Made by a program: the position numbers and the translations under genes. Below, piece by piece: positions 11,213-46,758 of a DNA stretch of 64,000 nt (within the stretch, counting starts at the first letter, position 1; every line of letters starts with the position of its first letter). Origin of the DNA: Octopus vulgaris (lineage: Eukaryota); the NCBI GenBank assembly GCA_951406725.2, contig OX597817.1:72292001-72356000 (forward strand). Reading direction: 5' to 3'. The notes under the pieces were generated by a model. That model was not told where the DNA came from. It saw only the letters and a list, made by a program, of their open reading frames with translations, and did not search any database.

Positions 11213-13310
11213 TAGGGGTCGGACAAAATAATGGAAGTTTTATTATCTAATACGGAGTCAGTTCAACATTTGGCATCAAACAAAGTAATAATATGTCAAG
11301 GATTTTGCTTGAACTGGTTCCGAACTGTTGTTTGGAGAATTTTGAACTATTCTTTAATTCAAACCTGCTATAGCTCTTTTAGCGACAATGATGGAAACAA
11401 GTGACTTCACTTGCCGATCCAAAATCCACCACAAATTTTTGATTGTAGTGAGATCTGGTAATTATGTAAGCTAATCCAAGAAGTCTACTCCACTTTTGTG
11501 TTCTTCGTACCAGTTTTGGATAAATGTTAGTCTTGTGAATCAATGCATTTTCGTCCTTGAAGATGGCACTACCATCAGGGAACAAAGTTTGTAGTATATG
11601 ATGGACAACATTAGCTAAAATACTCAGATCATCGTTTGCGTTAACTCTACTATGTAGAATAACTAAAGAGCCGAGAGAATTCCATGATATGGCAGCCCAA
11701 ATCATCACAGAGCCACCTCTATGCTCCACGGTTGAAGGCCAAAAATTTCTGAATGAAGGCTCCCTCCAAAAATAAACTCGCCTTGAGAGTGGAGTAAAAG
11801 AGAGTGAATGATGATTCATCAGAGATGACATTGTCCTGTTGAACCATTAACAACTTTTGAAAGTCGAGACACCATTTTTTCTGCTAATGGAGCTTATTAA
11901 GGGAGAGAAGAGTTTTAGCAACTACTGTCTTCCCAAGGTATTAGCAAAGGAGTGGTTTAGATCTGCTGTCATTTTTGTTGTCGTAGTTCGATAGTTCTTA
12001 GACACAAGACGTTTCGCTATTCTGCCGTCCTACTATAGAAACTTAGCATTTCGTCCAGAATTATGTTTGGCAGAGTTGGTTTTACCCTCATTTTGGAATG
12101 CCATCGTGAGTTTGAAAAATGTACATCTTGAAACATGAGACAATTCAACAGTTTTGATAACTGAAGCTCCAGCCAAACAACTTCACAAATTTGTTCTTTC
12201 TTGGAAATTAGAAAGGTCATACATTTTAATTTAAGTACATACAAGGTCTGATCAATAAGTATCCGGATTGTTGCTATAGTAACGAAGCTAAAGTACGCAG
12301 AGTGAAGCCGCTAGAAAAGGATTGACCTTGAACTCAGCTATGCATGTGCACTAAGTTTTAACGTTCTAACTTACTTCCACTGTTACAGCAGTGCTTGGAA
12401 AGAACGTGTGTAGCGTGCGATCGTTGCATTGACCATGACAGAGAAAGTTGTCATCGTGACACCTGCTCAGGGGCCAACGCAAAGTTGCAGAAAGTGTATG
12501 GAGAGGAGTGTATGAGGCGTACACAAGTGTGCGAATGGTTCAGGCGTTTTCAAGACGGCCGAAAAATGCTGATATTGACGGACTTTCTGGGAGACCCGCA
12601 ACCGGCAGGACAGAGAAAAACATCGCAGATGTGCGTGCAGGTGAGGGAAAATCGTCGAATAACCATCCGTGAGTTATCAGAAGATATGCAAAATAGTTAC
12701 GATTCAGTTCAGTCCATTATCAGTGGAGATTTGGGTATGAGACGCGAGTCTGCAAAGTTTGTGCAAAAACTGCTTTCAGCTAACCTAAAAGACACTCGGG
12801 TTTCGGTTGCACAAGGTCTCCTTGATTGTGTTGAGAACCATTAAAACTTTTTGAAAACTTTGCGCACGCTTCTGAGCATGTATCGCCAAGCTTTTGGCAA
12901 AATTTGATACAGACTCTTTGCTCAACTTTCTCTGTCATGACCAATGCGAAGACCACACGCTACATACCTTCCTCCCAAGCACTGCTGTAAATAGCGGAAG
13001 TGAGATAGAACGTTAAAATTTAGTGCGCAAGCACAGCCAAATTCAAGGTCAATCTTTGCCAAGCAGCTTCACTCTGCGTAATTTAGCTTCGTTACTATGG
13101 TGAAAGTCCTGATACTTATTGATCAGAGTATAATAGCAAAAACCGATAAACAGAAAGCTGGACAGTGGAGCACAAAGCATATATAATGAATAATGTGTAT
13201 AAACACATATTTATATACATATTTGAATACTGCTGAATTTGTGACATTGTCAATAGGAAGAAGAGTTAAATAAAAAAAAGTGTTGTTGACATTATTTTAC
13301 CCAAATCCTG
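11213..13310 (-). mobile_element. Tc1-like DNA transposon (decayed), interrupted by a nested mariner
   Basis: Imperfect TIRs taggggtcggacaaaataatgg / gacattattttacccaaatcctg with TA flanks; transposase remnants TVEHRGGSVMIWAAISWNSLG...AIFKDENALIH and AGASVIKTVEL. Confidence 0.85.
12242..13128 (+). mobile_element. Internally deleted mariner element with ~150-bp TIRs
   Basis: TIRs caaggtctgatcaataagtatccgga... / ...gatacttattgatcagag, TA flanks; Mos1-like HTH (LQKVYGEECMRRTQVCEWFRRFQDGR, NRRITIREL, AKFVQKLL); catalytic domain missing. Confidence 0.9.
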
Positions 13311-18224: not shown

Positions 18225-18428
18225 GCATTCTTTTATTCTTTTACTTGTTTCAGTCATTTGACTGTGGCCATGCTGGAGCACTGCCTTTAGTCTACCAAAT
18301 CCATTCACAAGGCTTTGGTCGGCCCGAGGCTATAGTAGAAGACACTTGCCCAACGTGCCACGCAGTGGGACTGAACCCGAAACCATGTGGCTGGTAAGCA
18401 AGCTACTTACCACACAGCCACTCCTGCG
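18225..18428 (-). mobile_element. SINE family A, internally deleted copy
   Basis: Reverse complement of the head (cgcaggagtggctgtgtggtaagtagcttgc) joined directly to the tail (cagtcaaatgactgaaacaagtaaaag). Confidence 0.85.
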
Positions 18429-18471
18429 TAATTACACTCACTCATACACACATACACTCACATACACGCGC

Positions 18472-18502
<31 letters not shown>

Positions 18503-18565
18503 TGTATGTATGTATGTATGTATGTATGTATGTATGTATGTATGTATGCATGTATGTATGGCATT

Positions 18566-19340
18566 AAGTGGAAGCACTGCTTCAGTGATCTTGAAATATT
18601 GGAAGGCTCTCGGTGTGAAAGTATAGAAGCTCTTGTGTTAAAGCAAAGGCTCAGATGGAGTGGTCATCTGGTCAGGATGAAGGATTCAAAGATGCCAAAA
18701 CAACTCTTTTATGGAGAGTTAGCTAAAGGAGAACGACCTCCACATAAACCAAAAAAGAGGTATAAGGACTTGCTGAAGGCTTCCTTAAGAGATGCTTGCA
18801 TCTCTCCTGACACATGGGAAGGCATAGCTATTGATCGTAGCAGGCGGAGAAGGATTGTGCATGAGGGGACAGTCACTTTTGAGAAATCTCGAGTTGCACA
18901 TGAGAAAGTAAGGAGGGATGTCAGGAAGGGCATCACTGTTACACTTCCAGAAAGGAAGGGTCTTCCTTTGATGCTGACATGCAATGTCTGTGCAAGACCC
19001 TGCCTCAGTAAAGCTGGACTCAAGAGTCATCTTCGTAGTCATAAAGCGAGACAGATGAGTGACAACCTGGCCAGTGGTGGTGGTGTAACACACCATACTA
19101 ATCATATCTGTTGGGCATGTGGAAGAGAGTGTAATTCAGCAGGAGGACTTAAACGACATGCAGGGGTAGATGAAGCCCAGTTACAACTACAGCCGGCTAT
19201 TACCGGTAAAGGTTTTAGTTGCCAATTCTGTACAAGACATTGTAGATCTTTAGCTGGGCTAAAAAGTCACATTTGATCACAACACCAGTAGCAGTTAAGC
19301 CTGGTGCAATGGCCATACTCGATAACGAGGGGGCAGCCAT
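18566..19340 (+). mobile_element. 5'-truncated RTE LINE 3' end with C2H2 zinc fingers
   Basis: RLRWSGHLVRMKDSKMPKQLFYGEL...PKKRYKD, then CNVC..LKSHLRSH, CWAC..LKRH, CQFC..LKSH; (TATG)n on both sides. Confidence 0.9.
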
Positions 19341-30701: not shown

Positions 30702-30758
30702 TACATACATACACACACACACACACGCACACACACATACCTATATATATATATACAT

Positions 30759-32326
30759 AGTAAGGAAAAATTTTTTTAAAAATGCAGAATGCTCAAATGA
30801 AAGAAAATTTTAATAAAATGAGAAAATGATAAAATATATAAATATATATATTTATTCAACCGGTTTTCGTCAATGTATGACTTGTCAAGAATATTTATGT
30901 TTTAAGAAGTTTTTTTAAAAATTAGAAAGGGGAAAAAAGAAAATTGCAATGTTTTTTGTAAAAGAATAATGATAAAAATGTACAAAAATTAAAAAATAAG
31001 TTCTCCGATACATTGTGAGTTCGTTGTGTATCTTGAGTTTTATGGTTGTTTACCAAAAAATTACCTTGAGGTGTTAAGATCCAAAGGGATTAAGAGCATG
31101 TGATGTGTTGTGTTGTTAAATTCAGCATGTTGCAGGACAGGAAGTAGTAGTAATTGTGGTCCTGGTTCTTCAGTTCCTGTGTTGTGAGTAAGGGGAGACA
31201 ACTCTTTTGAGTTCTTCAATAAAACCCAAATTATAAAACTATCATTTTAGCTTCATTTGCATTATCTTTTTTATATAATTGCTTGTTAACTTAACTTTCA
31301 GATTTTAACACTTTATTAATATTATTTTCTAATAATATAAAACTGCATAGACAATTGCATTTCAAATTGTCATATCATTTATAATAAAAATGATAGTAGT
31401 AACAACAACAATAGTGAAAATGATATTTAAAGAATATAAGTTTTAGCTTGAAGTGGTGAATGCATGGTATCTTTATATATTTGTGTTAGTCCATCCATGA
31501 AGAGTGAGGTAGAGAAAGGAAGTTTGATCAACGAGGAGTTTGCATATTAAGTTGTGTTTGGAATTTTTCAATAAAGAGATTCTCCTTGTTAATTCTCTCC
31601 TGTGTGGTGATCCCGTCTTTACATTGGTAGAAGGGGAATATATAGAATTTGGGGTTTAAGTCTTTAGCACATGAGTCTAAGTGGTCACTCAGTGGAATTT
31701 GTCGGTATTCCGGGAGATTTATTTGTTCTTTATGCACCGTTACTCGTTTACGTAACGGGAGACTCGTTTGTCCCACATAATTATGTTGGCAACCAGCGCA
31801 TGTGAGAACGTAGATAAGGTTCTCGGAGGAACAGGAGAAGTTAGTCTTGATTTTAAACTTCGTACCTTGTTTGAAGGTAAATTCAGAGCCTTCAAGTAGA
31901 AAGGGGCAGGTACCACAGTTTGAGCGTGCACATTTTTTTACTGTTGGGGGTGGATGTGGTGTGTGAAGTTTGGCATTTGTCAAGAGTTTTTTTAAAGATT
32001 TGTGTTGCCTTTTGCATTTGAGGATTTTGTGTGTATTTATAATGTTTTTCATTTTTGGGTCTGTTGACAGTAGACTGAGGTTTTGTATGATTGTGGTGTA
32101 TGCTTCGATATTTTTGGGGTTGTGGGTGGAAATGTATGGAAGTATTTTGAGGTTGTGTGTGGTGTTAGGTTGGGTGGTTATCAGTGTAGTGTTGTCTAGT
32201 TCTTTGGCGCGTTTTATTCCATACTCTATAAGGGTGGAGGGATATTGACGTTGTAATAGTGTTTTTTTGAGGTCTTGAAGGCGTATTTCTCGTGTTTTTG
32301 GATCCGAGACAATGGTGCATACCCTT
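30759..32326 (-). repeat. 1.57-kb inverted duplicate of the element's 3' part (35557-37124)
   Basis: ORF 31528-32052(-) encodes the same last 174 aa as 34256-36355(+); nearly identical DNA. Confidence 0.97.
30853..30893 (-). ncRNA. Hammerhead-like motif in the inverted pLTR copy
   Basis: Reverse complement of 36991-37031. Confidence 0.7.
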
Positions 32327-32556
32327 CTTTTTTTCTCCTTTCTAATTTTTAAAAAAACTTCTTAAAACATAAATATTCTTGACAAGTCATACATTGACGA
32401 AAACCGGTTGAATAAATATATATATTTATATATTTTATCATTTTCTCATTTTATTAAAATTTTCTTTCATTTGAGCATTCTGCATTTTTAAAAAAATTTT
32501 TCCTTACTTATCTTTTCTCCACGTGCGGTCAACACAACCCCACCATTTATTGATCT
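32325..32556 (+). repeat. 5' pseudo-LTR (partial tandem repeat)
   Basis: Direct repeat of 36942-37172 with only a few differences. Confidence 0.95.
32374..32414 (+). ncRNA. pLTR minimal type I hammerhead-like motif, U3-A8 core variant
   Basis: TATTC TTGACAA GTCA-TACAT-TGAC GAAA ACCGGT T GAATA; one extra A after GAAA makes the register at the cleavage site ambiguous. Confidence 0.7.
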
Positions 32557-32584
32557 GTACCCTCTACCACACGTGTGATTCAGA

Positions 32585-33427
32585 ATGCCTCCGAAAAACA
32601 AGAGCACTCTTACAGAGACAGTCACCAATAAGACCATTCTAAAAGAACTCAAAGTACTCAATACACATCTACTTACATTCTCCAAAAAAATTGACGAACT
32701 TCTCCTTCAACCCTGGGACAATTCAGAAAACAACCATCATCAACAACTTTCGGATAAAATTGATGTAAACCTAAACGAAATCAACACTACACTGAAAACT
32801 CTACTTTCGGATAAGATAGATGTAAACCTAAATGAAATCAACACTACACTGAAAACTCTACTTACCAATTCAACGCCAAAGAGACCTCAGACACCACTCA
32901 ACACACAGAAGGAACACATTTCAACCCCAGCACAACGCATTAAAAACCAGATCATCACTACTTGGACTAAGAAACTACACAACAGAAAACTTCTCTTCTG
33001 GAACATGCTCAAAAACCAAAACAAAGCTGATATTTACGACAAATGGTTAAACTCCTCCCCTATCATACTACCCCGAAAATTCCAAATCAAACACATCCCA
33101 GACGAACCTGAAAAACAACGCTCCCTAAGAGAAAAACTAACATTGGAAAAAATGAAAACCGAAGTAGAACTTCTAAAACTCAGAGCACAAAACCACGAAC
33201 AAAAATACACAAAAATAGACGATGAGATACTTCTAGAACTAACCTCACACACCAACGAACAGCCCCTCGAACTTGTTATTAAACTATGGAAAGATGAATG
33301 TGAAAAGGAAGAACGAACCTCCCTCAAACGCTGGGAAAACAACAAAGATTTCTTCCTCAACTATGAAACACAATTCATATTAAACCATAAATCCAAAAAC
33401 CCATTCATAAAAGTACCCACAACATAG
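32585..33427 (+). CDS. PLE upstream ORF1, coiled-coil-like; probably extended to 34077 originally
   Basis: 280-aa ATG ORF directly after the pLTR, K/E/L-rich helical segments, 19-aa tandem repeat; the frame stays open past TAG 33425, and a second frame is open 33646-34077. Confidence 0.8.
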   Translation: MPPKNKSTLTETVTNKTILKELKVLNTHLLTFSKKIDELLLQPWDNSENNHHQQLSDKIDVNLNEINTTLKTLLSDKIDVNLNEINTTLKTLLTNSTPKRPQTPLNTQKEHISTPAQRIKNQIITTWTKKLHNRKLLFWNMLKNQNKADIYDKWLNSSPIILPRKFQIKHIPDEPEKQRSLREKLTLEKMKTEVELLKLRAQNHEQKYTKIDDEILLELTSHTNEQPLELVIKLWKDECEKEERTSLKRWENNKDFFLNYETQFILNHKSKNPFIKVPTT

Positions 33428-34007
33428 ACTTCCACTGTACCCCATAAACACCATTCCAAACCGCACCTCAAATACACATACTCTCCAAACCCCCTCCTAA
33501 CAGGACACAACCTCCCCCAACCATATAAAAAACCCTTTCCCCCCCGAAACATCTCAAACAAGACCCACCACAAAACCTGGTTTTCCAATCACTCTAACAC
33601 CCCTCCCCCACCGATTAGAACCTTCAAGAACCTCCCATACACTAGAAATTATCCCCCCTCAAGGCTCCCCTCCCTCACACTAATAACAAACAAGGCATCC
33701 TACCCACACCGATACATATAAGACCCACCCAACGAACCCCCTATAGTCCACCCATCCAACAACCACATTCCTACCACATCTCCTACAGATCTCCAAACCC
33801 TCACATCCCACACGAACCCAATCACCACAACTACATACCCCCCTACATCCCCCCATACAATCTACCAGACACACACCCACAAACCCATCGCATTTCTCAC
33901 AAATCCTTACACCATCGCATCCCATACCAACACAAATACGACAACTACCTACCCCCCTCCAACCTCCCCACCCAAAAACACTCCTACACATACAACCAGA
34001 ACTTTAA

Positions 34008-36355
34008 CAAAGAATACACCCCTTACCTCAACAACCATTTTTTAGACAGAGGGGAAAAATACAAACACCACCGCTAACACAGACCCAAAATAAGAAAACA
34101 AAAATTATAAACCTCTCCAGCAAAACACTGACACCAACCCAAATCAACATCCTAGCAAGAGGTTTGAAATTCACACCCACCCCAAGAACACCCAACCCCC
34201 GGAGGTCAAGGATGACGTTTCTGAATTCTGCAGAAAACTTCGCCTAACAGAAGCTTTGACAGATATCAACAATGGGGACGACTCATTGATCAGAAATAAA
34301 AGCAACTTCCTACCACCAAAAGGGAGAAATAAAACACTGGACGATTTCTGTAAACACATCCAGAGTCTCCCCTTTACCCCAAGCAAAACCAAGGTAAAAT
34401 CCAATTTCAGTAAGGAAGAATGGGAAAACCTACGTGACATACAACTGGATAAAAACCTCACCATCAAAGAAGCGGACAAAGGGAGTGCTGTGGTCCTTAT
34501 GGACACGGAATTTTATAAACACCTAGTGTTCTCCATGCTTAACAATAACATTTTCTATGAGGTTATTAACAACTACAAACAGCAAAAAACAATCAGAAAC
34601 CTCACCACACTCATACGCCAACACGGTCAGGGACTCACAGAAAAAGAAAGGGATTATATCACCATTTTCAAATGCAAGCCCAGCCTTTTTTATGGCCTTC
34701 CTAAAATCCATAAAAACAAATACATCACCGAAGCCTGCAAACTCTCCACTGACATCCACATCAACATCAAAGCACCGGAGGACCTAAAACTAAGGCCCAT
34801 CGTGGCTGGTACCTCCTGTGAAACACACCGCCTGAGTAACTTCCTAGACATCCATTTGAAACCTTTCCTTACCCACATCAAAAGTTTCATTAGGGATGAT
34901 CTGGACATGCTCAAACACCTCCCGAAAACAGTTAACGAGGAGGCACTCCTGGTATCCTTTGATGTCATCAACCTCTACACCAACATTCCACATGAGTATG
35001 GTATAGAGGCAATTGACTTCTGGCTAGAAAAACACCCAGAGACATTCCCTGACCGCATTAACAAGTCTTTTATTACAGAATCTCTTAAGTTCATTCTGAC
35101 AAACAATTTTTTTCTCTTCGACGACACACACTACCGTCAAAAATGTGGCATTGCGATGGGTACCAAGGCTGCACCAGTCCTTGCGAACCTCATAATGGGT
35201 TACTTCGAACTGTCACTCTATGAAATATCAAGCCAGAAATTTGGACATGTTTTCCACACCTACCTAATGGAAAACTGGAAAAGGTATTTAGATGATTGTT
35301 TCATCATATGGAAAGAACCTTATGAAAAACTCCTGGAATTCAAAACCATACTAAACAACATACATCCCAACATCCAATTCACTATGGAATTAAGCAAACA
35401 TCATCTCCCATTCCTTGATCTCCTAATTATAAAAACACCTAAGAACCAAATCATAACAGACATCTACCACAAACCTACAGACTCACAACAATACCTCCTC
35501 TTTAGTTCATGCCACCCAAAACACACCAAGACAAATATCCCTTTCAATTTAGCTAAATGGGTATGCACCATTGTCTCGGATCCAAAAACACGAGAAATAC
35601 GCCTTCAAGACCTCAAAAAAACACTATTACAACGTCAATATCCCTCCACCCTTATAGAGTATGGAATAAAACGCGCCAAAGAACTAGACAACACTACACT
35701 GATAACCACCCAACCTAACACCACACACAACCTCAAAATACTTCCATACATTTCCACCCACAACCCCAAAAATATCGAAGCATACACCACAATCATACAA
35801 AACCTCAGTCTACTGTCAACAGACCCAAAAATGAAAAACATTATAAATACACACAAAATCCTCAAATGCAAAAGGCAACACAAATCTTTAAAAAAACTCT
35901 TGACAAATGCCAAACTTCACACACCACATCCACCCCCAACAGTAAAAAAATGTGCACGCTCAAACTGTGGTACCTGCCCCTTTCTACTTGAAGGCTCTGA
36001 ATTTACCTTCAAACAAGGTACGAAGTTTAAAATCAAGACTAACTTCTCCTGTTCCTCCGAGAACCTTATCTACGTTCTCACATGCGCTGGTTGCCAACAT
36101 AATTATGTGGGACAAACGAGTCTCCCGTTACGTAAACGAGTAACGGTGCATAAAGAACAAATAAATCTCCCGGAATACCGACAAATTCCACTGAGTGACC
36201 ACTTAGACTCATGTGCTAAAGACTTAAACCCCAAATTCTATATATTCCCCTTCTACCAATGTAAAGACGGGATCACCACACAGGAGAGAATTAACAAGGA
36301 GAATCTCTTTATTGAAAAATTCCAAACACAACTTAATATGCAAACTCCTCGTTGA
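34008..36355 (+). CDS. PLE reverse transcriptase + Zn-finger linker + GIY-YIG endonuclease (one 1-nt frameshift in the C-run at 34196-34200)
   Basis: IINLSS, GLKFTPTP, ADKG, FYGLPKIHK, LRPIV, SFDVINLYTNIP, GIAMG, RYLDD, LPFLD, YHKPT, SCHP, CARSNCGTC linker, NLIYVLTCAGCQHNYVGQT; 699 aa uninterrupted from 34256. Confidence 0.95.
34038..34044 (+). promoter_or_regulatory. Candidate -1 ribosomal frameshift slippery heptamer U-UUU-UUA
   Basis: In register with the extended ORF1 frame (CAT TTT TTA GAC...TAA 34077); a -1 slip enters the ATG-less frame FFRQRGKIQ...IINLSSKTLT...GLKFTPTP. Confidence 0.6.
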
Positions 36356-36941
36356 TCAAACTTCCTTTCTCTACCTCACTCTTCATGGATGGACTAACAC
36401 AAATATATAAAGATACCATGCATTCACCACTTCAAGCTAAAACTTATATTCTTTAAATATCATTTTCACTATTGTTGTTGTTACTACTATCATTTTTATT
36501 ATAAATGATATGACAATTTGAAATGCAATTGTCTATGCAGTTTTATATTATTAGAAAATAATATTAATAAAGTGTTAAAATCTGAAAGTTAAGTTAACAA
36601 GCAATTATATAAAAAAGATAATGCAAATGAAGCTAAAATGATAGTTTTATAATTTGGGTTTTATTGAAGAACTCAAAAGAGTTGTCTCCCCTTACTCACA
36701 ACACAGGAACTGAAGAACCAGGACCACAATTACTACTACTTCCTGTCCTGCAACATGCTGAATTTAACAACACAACACATCACATGCTCTTAATCCCTTT
36801 GGATCTTAACACCTCAAGGTAATTTTTTGGTAAACAACCATAAAACTCAAGATACACAACGAACTCACAATGTATCGGAGAACTTATTTTTTAATTTTTG
36901 TACATTTTTATCATTATTCTTTTACAAAAAACATTGCAATT

Positions 36942-37171
36942 TTCTTTTTTTCCCCTTTCTAATTTTTAAAAAAACTTCTTAAAACATAAATATTCTTGAC
37001 AAGTCATACATTGACGAAAACCGGTTGAATAAATATATATATTTATATATTTTATCATTTTCTCATTTTATTAAAATTTTCTTTCATTTGAGCATTCTGC
37101 ATTTTAAAAAAATTTTTCCTTACTTATCATTTCTCCACGTGCGGTCAACACAACCCCACCATTTATTGATC

Positions 37172-37172
<1 letters not shown>
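36942..37172 (+). repeat. 3' pseudo-LTR
   Basis: Direct repeat of 32325-32556; ends at (TA)n. Confidence 0.95.
36991..37031 (+). ncRNA. pLTR hammerhead-like motif, 3' copy
   Basis: Identical to 32374-32414. Confidence 0.7.
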
Positions 37173-37214
<42 letters not shown>

Positions 37215-37823: not shown

Positions 37824-38560
37824 GGCGCAGGAGTGGCTGTGTGGTAAGTAGCCTGCTTACCAACCACATGGTTCTGGGTTCAGTCCCACAGCGTGGCACC
37901 TTGGGCAAGTGTCTTCTACTATAGCATCGGGCCGACCAAAGCCTTGTGAGTTGATTTGGTTGACGGAAAACTGAAAGAAGCCCGTCGTATATATGTATCG
38001 TTATTACCATTCTTGTTTTTAATTTTATTTTTGTTTTTTGTATCTATATTCGTGTGGCATCGTCCGTTTTTTGTCCCTGTTTCGTATACATTCGATCCTT
38101 TTTCCAAGAAATCTAATGCTCGCAGCTTAGTTTTTCCTTGGGGCTGGCCGGGTTTGAGCGATATCAGGATTAATCAGCCGAAATTTGCTATGATGATCCG
38201 GTTCCTGACTGAAGATTAGAGGCTTCGAATGACCCGTCCGTTTTTTGTCTCGTCTCTTTGTGTATTTTGCGTTCTTGTCCCATTTTGTATTTTTTATATA
38301 TAATTTTTATACATATATATATATATATATATATGCGTGTATGTTTGTGCGTCTGTGTTTGTCCTCCTAGCATTGCTTGACAACCGATGCTGGTGTGTTT
38401 ACGTCCCCGTCACCTAGCGGTTCGGCAAAAGGGACCGATAGAATGAGTACTGGGCTTACAAAGAATAAGTCCCGGGGTCGAGTTGCTCGACTAAAGGCGG
38501 TGCTACAGCATGGCCGCAGTCAAATGACTGAAACAAGTAAAAGAGTAAAAGAGAGAGAGT
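37824..38560 (+). mobile_element. SINE family A interrupted by a ~310-bp insertion in its internal TA tract
   Basis: Head ggcgcaggagtggctgtgtggtaag...gggttcagtccc, unrelated sequence at about 37995-38310, then the 3' half ending gtaaaagagtaaaagag. Confidence 0.9.
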
Positions 38561-38831
38561 ATTAAGTACTAAAGCTTAAAAATTAACTGAGAAGAAATAG
38601 ATGATAAAATATATTACAATGAAGCAAGTTAGTCTTTGGTGAAAGGGCACAGATTTGTTTGTAGGATTTTTTTCCTTTCTTTTCCCTCTTTTTTTTATCA
38701 TTTATTGAATTATCTAATTATATGATTTTTTTTGTTGCTTTTTAGGTTCCGAAATATTTTGTGCTAAGTGAGTCGTCTCCCTTGAATAGTGCTTTCGCGT
38801 CGAGAAACCAACAATATTCTGCACGTACACA

Positions 38832-39895: not shown

Positions 39896-39946
39896 CATAC
39901 ATATATATATATATACATACATATATATATTTATATACATATATAT

Positions 39947-41274
39947 AACATTGGTGTCTCTGGAAAGTTACTGAAATGGATTAAGTGTTTCCTGACAGAC
40001 AGATCTCAACATGTTGTAGTTGAAGGGGTAAAATCAATTTCAGTAAGGCCTTCGACAGGGTCGATCACAAGATCCTATTGAAAAAACTATCCAACATTGG
40101 TGTCTCTGGAAAGTTACTGAAATGGATTAAGTGTTTCCTGACAGACAGATCTCAACATGTTGTAGTTGAAGGGGTAAAATCAAGCCCAGCCAAAGTCAGT
40201 AGTGGCGTTCCGCAAGGCACTGTGCTGGGCCCACTTCTTTTCATCATTTACATTAATGACATTAATGACATCATCAAGCACAGCAACATAAAAATCTTTG
40301 CAGATGACTCCAAGCTACAGAAGGTCATAAATGAGGCGAGTGACCGGACATGCCTTCAGTCAGATCTACTGGCTGTTATCCAATGGGCAGAAAAAAACAA
40401 TATGCTGCTGAACGAGGATAAATTTGAGCTAATCCACTTTGGAAAAGAGGATGCCCTGAAACTCCCATACTCCCTTCCTTCAGGTGAAACTCTCGTGGCG
40501 TCCAACAACATCAGAGACTTGGGAGTAATTGTGGACAACAACGTAAGCTGGGCCACTCATATAAACACCAAAGTTGACATGGCCCGCAGAATGTGTTCCT
40601 GGATTCTCAGAACTTTCCAGTCGAGAGATATCCACACCATTATCCTTCTCTTCTCCACTTTTGCCCGACCCCACCTTGAATACTGTTGTCCACTGTGGTC
40701 TCCCCACACAATACAAGGTATCATAAAAGTTGAAGCACCTCAAAGGGCAATCACAAAAAAGATAGATGGCATGACAGGCCTCGACTATTGGGGTCGACTA
40801 GAAAAGCTAAAACTCTATTCTCTCCAACGTCGTCGTGAGCGCTACATCATCTGCATGATGTGGAAAATATTCCATCAGCATTGCCCAAATGATGTTGGCA
40901 TCACCTTTAAGGTACATCCAAGGCTTGGGCCCCGTGCCATCCGCCCAAAACAAAAATCGCACTCTCATCTCATAACAACAATACGGCACAATTATTTCAC
41001 CTCAATTGGCCCCGCTCTCTTTAACATTACACCAAAACACATTAAAACAGAAACTGACCCTATAGGGTTCAAGAAGTCTTTGGACAGATTCCTTCAAGAA
41101 ATCCCGGATAAACCCCCTACACCCGGATATGTCTCTGTAAACAATAACTCTCTACTTGAGTGGGCCATAGTGCCCAAATTCTGACTTGAAAGACTTCACC
41201 AGGTGGTGCTATTAAGTTAGACATGGCCTGGGCCAATAATGGCCGAAACCTATCAAAGTATCAAAGTATCAAAG
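39947..41274 (+). mobile_element. Young 5'-truncated CR1/jockey-group LINE
   Basis: Uninterrupted frame 40039-41184: [56 protein letters not shown]; (TATCAAAG)3 tail; lies within TA/TACA microsatellite. Confidence 0.93.
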
Positions 41275-41542: not shown

Positions 41543-42270
41543 CGTCAGTGAATCATATATCCGAAAAAGAAGCACACTCTAAGTTGATCAATGGTTTCGC
41601 ATGCTTAAAGTGCTTAGCTTTATTTATAAGGTTTCTTTTTACCTGCAAAACTCATTTTCTTTTTCCTGTAAAACTTGTTTAGTTAAAGAGATGCACTAAA
41701 TATTTATATTCAATAAAACTTTCTTTTTTTAGAACCCTCCGGTAAAATGTGATTCAGTCTTTTGACGTAAAACTCACTTTGTAAAAACACTAAAAAATTA
41801 TAAATATGACATTTTTTTGTGGGAAACTGTAATTTTGAATATATTTTTCAGAAATTTATATAGACATATAACATATTTACCTCTTATGTTAATAAACAAA
41901 CATTATTTATTTCAAATATATATATAAAAAACTTTGCACAATTGAAACTCTTTTTATTATAATTGTTTTCTATTTTTCTATATATGCGTGTGTACATTCA
42001 TTCTTCTCTGTGTGTGTGTGTGTGTGGTGCATGTGTGGCGTGTGTGTGTGTATGTATGAGTGTGTGTGTGCATGTTTATGCGTGTGTGCACGTGTGTGCG
42101 TACGTGTGTGTATGTGTGTGCACGGGTGTGCATGTGGTTGAGCATGCATGTGTATGTGTGTGCGTGTGTACGTATGTATGTGTGTGTACGTGCGTGTGTG
42201 TGTGTGCGAGCTTAAACAGATACACCACACATATTACTCCCACAGTCCAACAGACATATACCGGATATAC

Positions 42271-42486
42271 TCTCTCTTTTACTCTTTTACTTGTTTCAGT
42301 CATTTGACTGCGGCCATGCTGGAGCACCGCCTTTAGTCGAGCAAATCGACCCCGGGACTTATTCTTTGTAAGCCCAGTACTTATTCTATCGGTCTCTTTT
42401 GCCGAACAGCTAAGTGACGGGGACGTAAACACACCAGCATCGGTTGTCAAGCAATGCTAGGGGGACAAACACAGACACACAAACAT

Positions 42487-42555
<69 letters not shown>

Positions 42556-44186: not shown

Positions 44187-44226
<40 letters not shown>

Positions 44227-44391
44227 TAGTTATCGCCATACTAATATGGCATTCTTATAAAAATAAGAATAAAGCTGTCCGCTTATTAGCTCCATGAGGC
44301 CATCGCCTTAAGTTAGCTATTTGATACACAAACTGTATCCATATAACCTTCGAACAAGGGAGGTCAGTCGCTCCACACTACTTGACCGACA

Positions 44392-44433
44392 GCTACAGAC
44401 GCGTTTCGGGGTATTGCCCCTTGTCAATGTAGC
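44392..44433 (-). ncRNA. Type I hammerhead ribozyme, unit 1
   Basis: GCTACA TTGACAA GGGG-CAATA-CCCC GAAA CGCG TC TGTAGC: 6-bp stem I, U3-A8 core, 4-bp stem II, palindromic ACGCGT helix III, GUC triplet. Confidence 0.85.
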
Positions 44434-44753
44434 GTAGTCGGACCAGTAGGTGTCGCTTCTGACTATCTCTGTTCGAAGGTTTTATTTACCTAGTTTCGGT
44501 GGAATACATCCACTTGTTTTCAATAATAGAAATATTAAAATTACTAAGTCTCTCTAAAAGAGAATACGGCAGCGTTCCTGGAAATTAATAGTTATCGCCA
44601 TACTAATATGGCATTCTTATAAAAATAAGAATAAAGCTGTCCGCTTATTAGCTCCATGAGGCCATCGCCTTAAGTTAGCTATTTGATACACAAACTGTAT
44701 CCATATAACCTTCGAACAAGGGAGGTCAGTCGCTCCACACTACTTGACCGACA

Positions 44754-44795
44754 GCTACAGACGCGTTTCGGGGTATTGCCCCTTGTCAATGTAGC
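44754..44795 (-). ncRNA. Type I hammerhead ribozyme, unit 2
   Basis: Identical to unit 1 motif. Confidence 0.85.
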
Positions 44796-45115
44796 GTAGT
44801 CGGACCAGTAGGTGTCGCTTCTGACTATCTCTGTTCGAAGGTTTTATTTACCTAGTTTCGGGGGAATACATCCACTTGTTTTCAATAATAGAAATATTAA
44901 AATTACTAAGACTCTCTAAAAGAGAATACGGCAGCGTTCCTGGAAATTAATAGTTATCGCCATACTAATATGGCATTCTTATAAAAATAAGAATAAAGCT
45001 GTCCGCTTATTAGCTCCATGAGGCCATCGCCTTAAGTTAGCTATTTGATACACAAACTGTATCCATATAACCTTCGAACAAGGGAGGTCAGTCGCTCCAC
45101 ACTACTTGACCGACA

Positions 45116-45157
45116 GCTACAGACGCGTTTCGGGGTATTGCCCCTTGTCAATGTAGC
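45116..45157 (-). ncRNA. Type I hammerhead ribozyme, unit 3
   Basis: Identical to unit 1 motif. Confidence 0.85.
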
Positions 45158-45326
45158 GTAGTCGGACCAGTAGGTGTCGCTTCTGACTATCTCTGTTCGA
45201 AGGTTTTATTTACCTAGTTTCGGGGGAATACATCCACTTGTTTTCAATAATAGAAATATTAAAATTACTAAGACTCTCTAAAAGAGAATACGGCAGCGTT
45301 CCTGGAAATTAATAGTTATCGCCATA

Positions 45327-45395
45327 CTAATAAGCGGACAGCTTTATTCTTATTTTTATAAGAATGCCATATTAGTATGGCGATAACTATTAATT
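45327..45395 (+). repeat. 69-bp inverted copy of the array terminus
   Basis: Reverse complement of the first ~68 nt of the unit, joined through ctaata microhomology. Confidence 0.93.
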
Positions 45396-45560
45396 GACAA
45401 CCGATGGTAGTGTGTTTACGTACCCGTAACTTAGCGGTTCGGTAGAATAAGTACAAGGCTTACAAAGAATAAGTCTTGGGGTCGATTCGCTCGACTAAAG
45501 GCGGTGCTCCAGCATGGCCACAGTCAAATGACTGAAACAGGTAAAAGAGTAAAAGAGAAT
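45394..45560 (+). mobile_element. SINE family A, 3' half
   Basis: ttgacaaccgatgg...cttagcggttcgg...cagtcaaatgactgaaacaggtaaaagag. Confidence 0.85.
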
Positions 45561-45661
45561 ATATATATATATATATATATATATGAAAATGTGACCGCGT
45601 GTGTACCGTTGGCGATTTTTTTTCCTCTGTCTTCCCTTCAATGGATCTTTCTATCTCCTAT

Positions 45662-45696
45662 GTTTCCGACGAAGAGCTCCGCTCGAAACGTTAAGC
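45662..45696 (+). ncRNA. Degenerate minimal hammerhead-like motif
   Basis: GTTT CCGACGA A GAGC-TCC-GCTC GAAA CG TT AAGC. Confidence 0.55.
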
Positions 45697-46758
45697 CCTC
45701 CTCCTTTCCTTCTTTTCTGGACGTCCAATAATACTATATTTGTTCCACGTCCTCGCGTTGTTGTGTTTTTTTGTGCTTTCTTGTTTGGATTAACTATATA
45801 TATATATGAAGGTACAGGAGAGTAATTACGCTGGGTGCAATAGAACAATCCGGGTGTGTATGTAATAAATTTTAAAATTGAGCAATCGAACAAATACTTC
45901 AGAGCGAGCAAGGATTGTCTTCTTCAGAACAAATGTTGAGATTTCTCCTTTATGGAGCTGAAACTTGGAATCTGAAACAATAGCTTCACGATTGACTTGA
46001 AGGCACGTAGATTAAGCTTCCCGTTATAGCTCAAAGCACCTCATGGGGTGGTTAAAGCTAAAAGGGTGACATATGGACACATTCCGCTCTTTCCTATTAT
46101 TGTTGCTCAAGGCAGGGTAGGATTTGCTGGTCTCTGGTGTCAAATGACAAAACGTAACACTTAATTTCATGCATATCAATTACAAAGTAAGCGAAGCTTT
46201 TAGATTAAATTTCATGTGTATACAACATGTTTATATTACAGCGTCATACAATTAACCACGCTGTGCTATGTAGTTTATCTTCATATATGTAGAGATACAA
46301 TATGTTCCAAAAAAGCAGATCTGAGTTTGCGCTTAATCGATCACCTAAAATCCTGCCAAAAATCGCAAACTCTGAGCTGAGCTGAGGCTAAACAACAGCA
46401 GTAGCAACAACAACAACAACAACAACAACAACACTATCAATACCTTTAGTATATTTAAAAATGGGGGAAAATATTAACAGACACTCGACAGTTTAATTTA
46501 GGGGATATGCAGGAATGAAAAGACGTATTTAAGGGAGCAAACTTTACATACAATGATGGGAATTGGAAATAATGTCTATATAATGTATATATGGGTATAT
46601 ATTAGTGTACAGAGATATGTCGGTATGTATGTATGTATGATTGTATATGTACATGCGGATGCATGCATGTGTGTATTTATGTATGCATATATGTAAGTAT
46701 GTATTTATGCTTATATGTAGATATGTATTTATGCATGAATGTATATGTATGTATATAG

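Follow-up and report, generated by a model that had tools for sequence, protein, structure and literature searches.

A short tandem array occupies positions 44222..45332 of the window, by which we mean the whole stretch of 64,000 nt analysed here. Its RNA sense is the minus strand, with the 3' end at 44222, and it comprises three units of 362 bp plus 25 nt (3.07 units), the periodicity stopping at 45333. Unit 1 (44222..44583, minus strand) differs from the next two at 2 of 362 sites, positions 279 and 328: it carries T279, the letter of the family majority, and a T328 of its own, whereas units 2 and 3 (44584..45307, minus strand) are identical and both carry G279, which is rare in the family. 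The partial fourth unit (25 nt, 45308..45332, minus strand) is the truncated 5' end of the main arm. With a longest stop-free frame of 54 aa and a GC content of 40.6%, the units are non-coding.

At its 5' end the array turns back on itself. The preliminary description had read this end as a flip, through a ctaata microhomology, into a 69-bp inverted copy of the array's own 3' terminus, and had noted that the 3' end abuts (TA)n and that TSDs are missing; all of these observations held up. The inverted copy (45327..45395, plus strand, RNA-sense 3' end rightward) is an exact reverse complement of unit positions 0 to 68, identical at 69 of 69 nt. The 6-nt overlap CTAATA lies at 45327..45332 and can be read as part of either arm of the flip, as unit 20-25 forward or as unit 68-63 reversed; of the 131,044 flip junctions that the 362-bp unit allows, 0.23% have an overlap of at least 6 nt. 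As single-stranded DNA, the junction region folds into a 26-bp stem. The source unit of the inverted copy is indistinguishable, because the three units are identical across positions 1-68.

The left (3') end of the array adjoins a (TA)17 microsatellite (44190..44223), the probable target, whose final 2 bases are common to the array's first 2. The right flank is not a microsatellite; it is the 3' half of a high-copy SINE-like repeat (45394..45558, plus strand), and the last 2 bases of the inverted copy are common to it. Read in the hammerhead sense, both arms are directed outward and stop at one unit position within 2 nt, each arm end having about 2 nt in common with its flank. With both arms finishing at one position, no tail difference is visible between the ends. 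A comparison of the two flanks found no TSD framing the array, the best overlap being 3 nt. Copies of the SINE (38303-38562, 42265-42524, 45394-45558) lie in a microsatellite-rich landscape, and both the SINE and the landscape resemble octopus DNA.

The SINE copy beside the array lacks a head that is present in all three other window copies examined, where it measures 42, 48 and 92 nt from the TA run to the point at which this copy starts. The simplest reconstruction of the pre-insertion site would be (TA)n followed by SINE head and SINE body, from which the insertion would have removed about 40-50 bp. This putative target deletion is drawn from the three SINE copies of the window, and the SINE may already have been truncated at this point before the insertion.

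Hammerhead motifs of the array

A motif scan places a type I hammerhead on the minus strand of all three full units, at 44392..44433 in unit 1, 44754..44795 in unit 2 and 45116..45157 in unit 3. Each consists of a 6-bp helix I, the core UUGACAA, a 4-bp helix II closed by GAAA, and a palindromic helix III; the core is the U3-A8 variant, and the hammerhead helices fold. A strict scan of the window returned six motifs, three in the array and three in a neighbouring Penelope-like element (PLE), with 0 in each of 100 shuffles, and an Rfam search at the gathering score gave 0 matches. In unit 3 the predicted cut falls between 45122 and 45121. The unit position at which both arms stop lies 176 nt downstream of the predicted cut in the RNA sense; therefore, neither end of the array is a ribozyme end. 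Folding of the 362-nt monomer is strong, at a z of about -7 relative to 60 crude shuffles, and a fold of the unit dimer is predicted as well. The alternative identity of the unit as a tRNA-bearing repeat was rejected, ARAGORN finding 0 genes.

Among PLE hammerheads, a variant with the U3-A8 core has been described (PMC4209133); the accessible part of PMC6155905 does not mention it. All six hammerheads of the window have it (those of the PLE at 32373, 36990 and 30894, and those of the three array units). Present in two otherwise dissimilar elements, the variant may mark one PLE lineage and its dependants in this genome.

The neighbouring PLE and copies of the family elsewhere

The PLE just mentioned extends over 30759..37172 on the plus strand, with an RT and GIY-YIG frame and hammerheads of the U3-A8 type. 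Its inverted arm (30759-32324) is inverted against 35559-37124, the flip at 32324/32325 is blunt, and a partial tandem of 235 nt follows at 32325-32559. The RT and GIY-YIG frame lies at 34094-36355, and a 48-nt tail at 37125-37172 forms the main 3' end and is absent from the inverted arm. The frame matches RVT_1 (E 7.7e-08); the GIY-YIG match, found on the inverted-arm frame, has an E of 2.9e-04, below the Pfam cut-off. Many homologues carry PF01541 among the matches listed (120 of 639), and no clade-labelled PLE reference appears among these same matches of the protein search. The translation has a C-X4-C-X2-C linker before the endonuclease. Since a CX2-5CxxC linker at this place defines Neptune and Nematis (PMC8557442), the sequence of the element fits an assignment to one or the other. 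The PLE has a TSD candidate, one interrupted-TA 10-mer at 30749-30758 and 37173-37182 (up to 12 nt with boundary slop), a 10-mer that makes up 41 of the 4,434 TA-rich 10-mers in the window.

The element had been described, under the name Neptune, as having the same layout as the array at larger scale. The head-to-head flip is indeed common to both, but the PLE differs in its blunt junction, its 48-nt tail difference and its 10-nt TSD candidate. Measured from the predicted hammerhead cut, the two 3' ends of the PLE fall 98 and 146 nt downstream, as expected for two RT start sites. Its reading frame (32579-36355) is interrupted by stops between two long frames, and an N-terminal stretch resembling RT lies in a different frame near 34100-34200; the inverted arms are identical over 1,415 nt despite the interrupted frame. 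Beyond the hammerhead core, the 362-bp unit shows no similarity to the pLTR of this PLE (score 21, equalled by 213 of 300 shuffles), and the PLE was accordingly rejected as the direct parent of the unit. We treat it as an analogy for the array, not as a demonstrated partner.

Several other elements lie in the window. A third element (45585-45797), very high-copy and set between TA runs, has a decayed minimal-hammerhead-like motif near 45666-45695 and resembles a solo pLTR from a further PLE family; as a relative of the unit it was rejected (score 15, equalled by 292 of 300 shuffles). A fragment of another RT-encoding element (39942-41184, RVT_1 E 1.4e-18) has a 96-nt direct duplication at its start and lies between long TA-rich repeats. 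Frames 18398-19276 and 12362-12844 give weak matches to zf-C2HE and Mos1 transposase HTH.

Public sequencing data were compared for 4 of 24 listed runs (X1, X2, X5 and X21, with X5 labelled as a second organism) over the region 44900-46400, which leaves out the left (TA)n junction and any empty-site joint. The rows examined were 15 of 79 joints, 12 of 49 gapped joints, 18 of 807 loose ends and 24 of 219,623 pieces. The array's own flip junction is not among these rows for the four runs, which neither confirm nor refute it. X21, a set of raw reads, was uninformative, with 4 of 12.9 million reads placed and 0 on the unit.

The unit itself is high-copy: its contigs in X1 and X2 are hundreds of times deeper than the unique flank, and those in X5 have comparably high depths. 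In X1 the unique flank has a depth of 40.7, and the mean over the 57 contigs that show the family letter at 45224 is about 370 times as high; the family thus has at least hundreds of copies there, the summed depth not being a copy number. Tandem continuity is common, because contigs span the unit-to-unit boundary 45307/45308 in all three runs. Two flips with the same polarity as that of the array occur in X1. One of the 15 joints runs from unit 332 into inverted 27 at depth 140, and consists of a single contig with a short side of 27 nt at 92% likeness, in a class flagged for caution; one of the 12 gapped rows passes from unit 307 to inverted 31 across 4 additional letters, at depth 77.7. Short and from a single run, these flips are supporting, not decisive. 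The remaining joint and gapped rows listed involve the SINE or the third element.

The unique right flank is present at single-copy depth in X1 and X2. The array's own letters at 45164 and 45224 are missing from the matching contigs of X1, X2 and X5, that at 45164 being found in none of the contigs there, though contigs drop rare variants. These missing letters hint at a polymorphic insertion, without proving it. No RNA run is listed as a carrier of the sequence; six runs that may be RNA contain 0.19-0.22 of its words. A 33-mer pattern of the hammerhead had 0 matches in metagenome contigs, and a terminal 21-mer pattern of the unit had 0 in viral contigs; the 21-mer's one metagenome match, at the end of a coding, bacterial-looking contig, was rejected as chance.

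Insertion, flip and number of units

How did a non-coding repeat come to lie between a microsatellite and a SINE with one end turned back on itself? We think it moderately probable that the array is the insertion of a non-autonomous hammerhead repeat (a non-LTR retrozyme) made in trans by a Penelope-like RT/endonuclease, and we hold with similar confidence that a multimeric RNA, still uncleaved, offered a single internal site at which the PLE enzyme primed from both ends of the target. From the observed geometry, coincident ends, overlap and missing TSD, we infer the enzyme, the two-sided priming, the priming order and the target deletion.

The reaction might have proceeded as follows. Transcription of a donor array in the hammerhead sense would yield a multimer that does not cut itself; helix III, which is weak and palindromic, is predicted to require a dimer for cutting. 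The PLE protein would cut AT-rich DNA in (TA)n and extend both target ends, each extension beginning, on some 2 nt of pairing with the target, at one internal unit site 176 nt beyond the ribozyme cut. The left cDNA would become long, while the right one would halt after about 68 nt. Annealing of the two cDNA ends at CTAATA would then create the head-to-head flip, and about 40-50 bp of target (the SINE head) would be lost instead of duplicated.

The outward 3' ends that coincide within 2 nt, away from the ribozyme cut site, argue for such a pathway. A PLE protein assayed in vitro shows a preference for AT-rich targets, both strands of which it cuts and extends; its internal start sites are common to the two strands, and the RNA that it uses is for the most part uncleaved, hammerhead cleavage not being needed (PMC11167929). 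The chance rarity of a 6-nt overlap, the two X1 flips into the terminal segment, the high copy number of the family and the U3-A8 core common to the array and the neighbouring PLE also speak for it. An inverted 5'-truncated copy and a (TA)n bias are also described features of PLEs (PMC8557442). Against a PLE insertion, the array shows neither a tail nor a TSD like those of the neighbouring PLE, its junction does not appear in the run rows listed, and a partner PLE was not matched in the window.

The alternative that survives best concerns the flip, and we consider it unlikely. It is again a PLE-made insertion but with a fold-back, in which the 3' end of a single long cDNA self-annealed via CTAATA to unit 63-68 in the first unit it carried, was copied back to the cDNA start and was then joined to the right flank by a 2-nt overlap. 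Such a fold-back of one cDNA yields the identical final sequence, which counts against two-sided priming, and it explains together the coincident arm ends and the missing TSD. The 26-bp stem of the junction region and the identity of the units at positions 1-68 suit it as well, and palindromes located at the flips of PLEs have been interpreted by Arkhipova et al. as a sign of self-priming (PMC3846280). However, the arms of the neighbouring PLE end 48 nt apart and keep a 10-nt TSD candidate, which two primings fit better, and the PLE protein extends both strands in vitro (PMC11167929).

Very improbable, in our view, is an origin of the flip after the insertion, by break repair or by replication template switching that produced an inverted duplication with a deletion and involved no reverse transcription. 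Short overlaps and target loss beside an AT-rich microsatellite are signatures of repair as well, and both the 6-nt overlap and the probable target loss next to (TA)17 would suit it. It is nonetheless difficult to see why a repair copy should end at the unit position of the far end, 1.1 kb away, and repair explains neither the PLE polarity nor the two X1 flips into one segment. An assembly artefact, from a chimeric fold-back read or a mis-joined repeat, is scarcely credible: the junction is a hairpin with high-copy repeats on both sides and is not among the run rows listed, but the flip jumps to position 68 via the overlap with no one-base mirroring, the end of the inverted copy matches the register of the far end exactly, comparable flips at different breakpoints occur in contigs of the independent run X1, and the neighbouring PLE has the textbook form of the head-to-head layout.

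If a PLE wrote the array, did it write all three units? Letters unlike the family majority at 45113, 45154, 45164 and 45288 are common to the three units, which therefore descend from one lineage. Simultaneous writing of the three units from a linear multimer comes close to an even chance; a two-unit insertion in which one unit was duplicated later is a serious possibility that falls short of even; and one circle copied three times is doubtful, the least likely of the three readings.

Later lengthening, by unequal crossover or slippage that duplicated unit 2, concerns the number of units and not the ends, and belongs with the local-amplification model of Li, Clavereau and Pollet (10.64898/2026.07.22.740005). 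Units 2 and 3 are identical and both carry G279, a letter with 0.008% of family depth in X1, 0.015% in X2 and 0.020% in X5, while unit 1 keeps the family T279 and has its own T328; the shortest history is one change per unit followed by a duplication. On the other hand, duplication makes neither the flip nor the fixed ends, and G279 is not strictly private, X1 having contigs with G279 plus four other differences. Moreover, a linear multimer from a parent array with matching unit order predicts the identical pattern, so that a heterogeneous parent of this kind would fit T/G/G equally well as a two-unit insertion followed by duplication.

Strict rolling-circle copying of one 362-nt circular RNA, after the model of Cervera and de la Pena (PMC7229834), likewise bears on unit number. 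The non-majority letters common to the three units agree with it, as do the strong monomer fold and the permutation of the array ends relative to the ribozyme cut site. The difficulty is that unit 1 would have to regain the family T279 by back-mutation, gene conversion or template switch, and back-mutation of position 279 is roughly estimated at under 1%.

The preliminary description had proposed that the array was written in one event by a PLE RT copying a multimeric or circular RNA, and was not built by unequal crossover. Its view that the insertion ends are of PLE type gains from the head-to-head copy, the (TA)n, the arms ending at one internal site and the two X1 flips, and a multimeric template finds support in the way copying ran through several hammerhead sites uncleaved. 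A single circular template is unsupported, with G279 in units 2 and 3 and the family T279 in unit 1. For the same reason one event without unequal crossover is unproven, a two-unit insertion followed by duplication of unit 2 leaving the identical pattern.

Relation to known elements and implications

The array has the marks of a retrozyme: a 362-bp unit repeated 3.07 times, a hammerhead in 3 of 3 units, a non-coding sequence with a GC content below 50%, and many, putatively dispersed copies. Judged from its sequence, the unit appears to have every testable feature of the metazoan non-LTR retrozymes (PMC7229834), its self-cleavage and circular RNA being putative. Like the array, these elements have a tandem unit of 150-450 bp (350-390 bp in mussels), a type I hammerhead per unit, a GC content below 50%, no ORF and a strongly folding monomer, and PLEs have been proposed as their mobiliser. 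In the accessible part of that account, however, TSDs exceed 4 bp when present and inverted ends are not described, whereas the array has a flip, no TSD and a U3-A8 core. On the basis of co-occurrence and homology to pLTRs, a 2026 preprint (10.64898/2026.07.22.740005) regards animal retrozymes as non-autonomous sequences of PLEs, the same PLE dependence that we favour, and reports that most families have at most 7 units. In its accessible part insertion ends are not analysed, and local amplification is the favoured account of how arrays grow. The evidence at the array is instead an insertion scar, and no pLTR homologue was matched in the window.

L1 twin priming offers a further comparison. 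In that reaction two cDNAs are primed from two target ends, and microhomology unites them into a 5' inversion; the second primer anneals further upstream on the RNA, and the TSD is kept. The second priming at the array would differ in duplicating the 3' end.

EN+ PLE insertions (PMC8557442, PMC3846280) resemble the array in their head-to-head inverted 5'-truncated copy and their microsatellite or AT-rich target; the inverted copy can lie beside a partial tandem, and Pen2a has a 15-bp overlap at its flip. In these insertions pLTRs alone can mobilise other sequence in trans. They differ in being autonomous, with RT and GIY-YIG, and often have a 30-40-bp tail at one end and TSDs of 8-10 bp; in the array an ORF, a difference in tail between the ends and a TSD are all absent. 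It had been stated that inverted 5' segments without TSDs are typical of PLE insertions. The inversion is indeed described, but rotifer PLEs with inverted pLTRs have TSDs of 8, 9 and 10 bp in three cases and none in others (PMC3846280), and the neighbouring PLE has its 10-nt candidate. TSDs can also be hidden by microsatellites (PMC8557442). Because TSDs are thus often present or hidden, their absence is not diagnostic of PLEs.

Examples of non-autonomous PLE elements inserted as multiple head-to-tail copies come from Chlamydomonas (PMC8557442, 10.1101/2022.05.23.493040), where an active autonomous/non-autonomous Chlamys pair has been described (10.1101/2022.05.23.493040). Chlamys elements such as MRC1 (PMC8557442) are, like the array, non-autonomous, multicopy in head-to-tail insertions and dependent on PLEs, but they are algal, mostly without canonical hammerheads, and have a 3' end that resembles the autonomous partner; for the array no such partner was matched in the window. 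The Poseidon PLE of Anolis studied in vitro by Frangieh et al. in 2024 (PMC11167929) likewise combines an internal RT start, extension of both strands and an AT-rich target, but it belongs to a different clade and uses an autonomous RNA, and two start sites define its tail, compared to one site for the arms of the array.

The array, then, is the known head-to-head PLE layout on what its sequence identifies as a metazoan non-LTR retrozyme. We found no published report of inverted ends on a retrozyme array, although most subscription papers and bioRxiv supplements fell outside the search and may hold one and PMC8490949 does not bear on the matter, and insertion-scar evidence for the already proposed model of PLE mobilisation is apparently unreported. 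As a single unconfirmed locus, the array illustrates that model and does not establish a new system.

PLE mobilisation of animal retrozymes has so far been argued from common hammerheads, co-occurrence and pLTR homology (PMC7229834; 10.64898/2026.07.22.740005). A flip whose two arms stop at a single internal position provides evidence of a different kind, the scar of the reaction itself, and it links the internal-start extension of two strands seen in vitro (PMC11167929) to the unexplained inverted ends of PLEs. Genome-wide scoring of ends and unit variants could decide between circle, linear multimer and local duplication. It is conceivable, though less likely than not, that arrays of animal retrozymes arise in one step as complete multimers, primed from two sides at one fixed internal start site carried by the retrozyme. 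If so, the hundreds to thousands of copies here would be a natural library of PLE insertion scars, whose start sites, flip points and target losses would map the cis-signal read by the PLE enzyme and settle whether such arrays originate from circles, from linear multimers or by local duplication.
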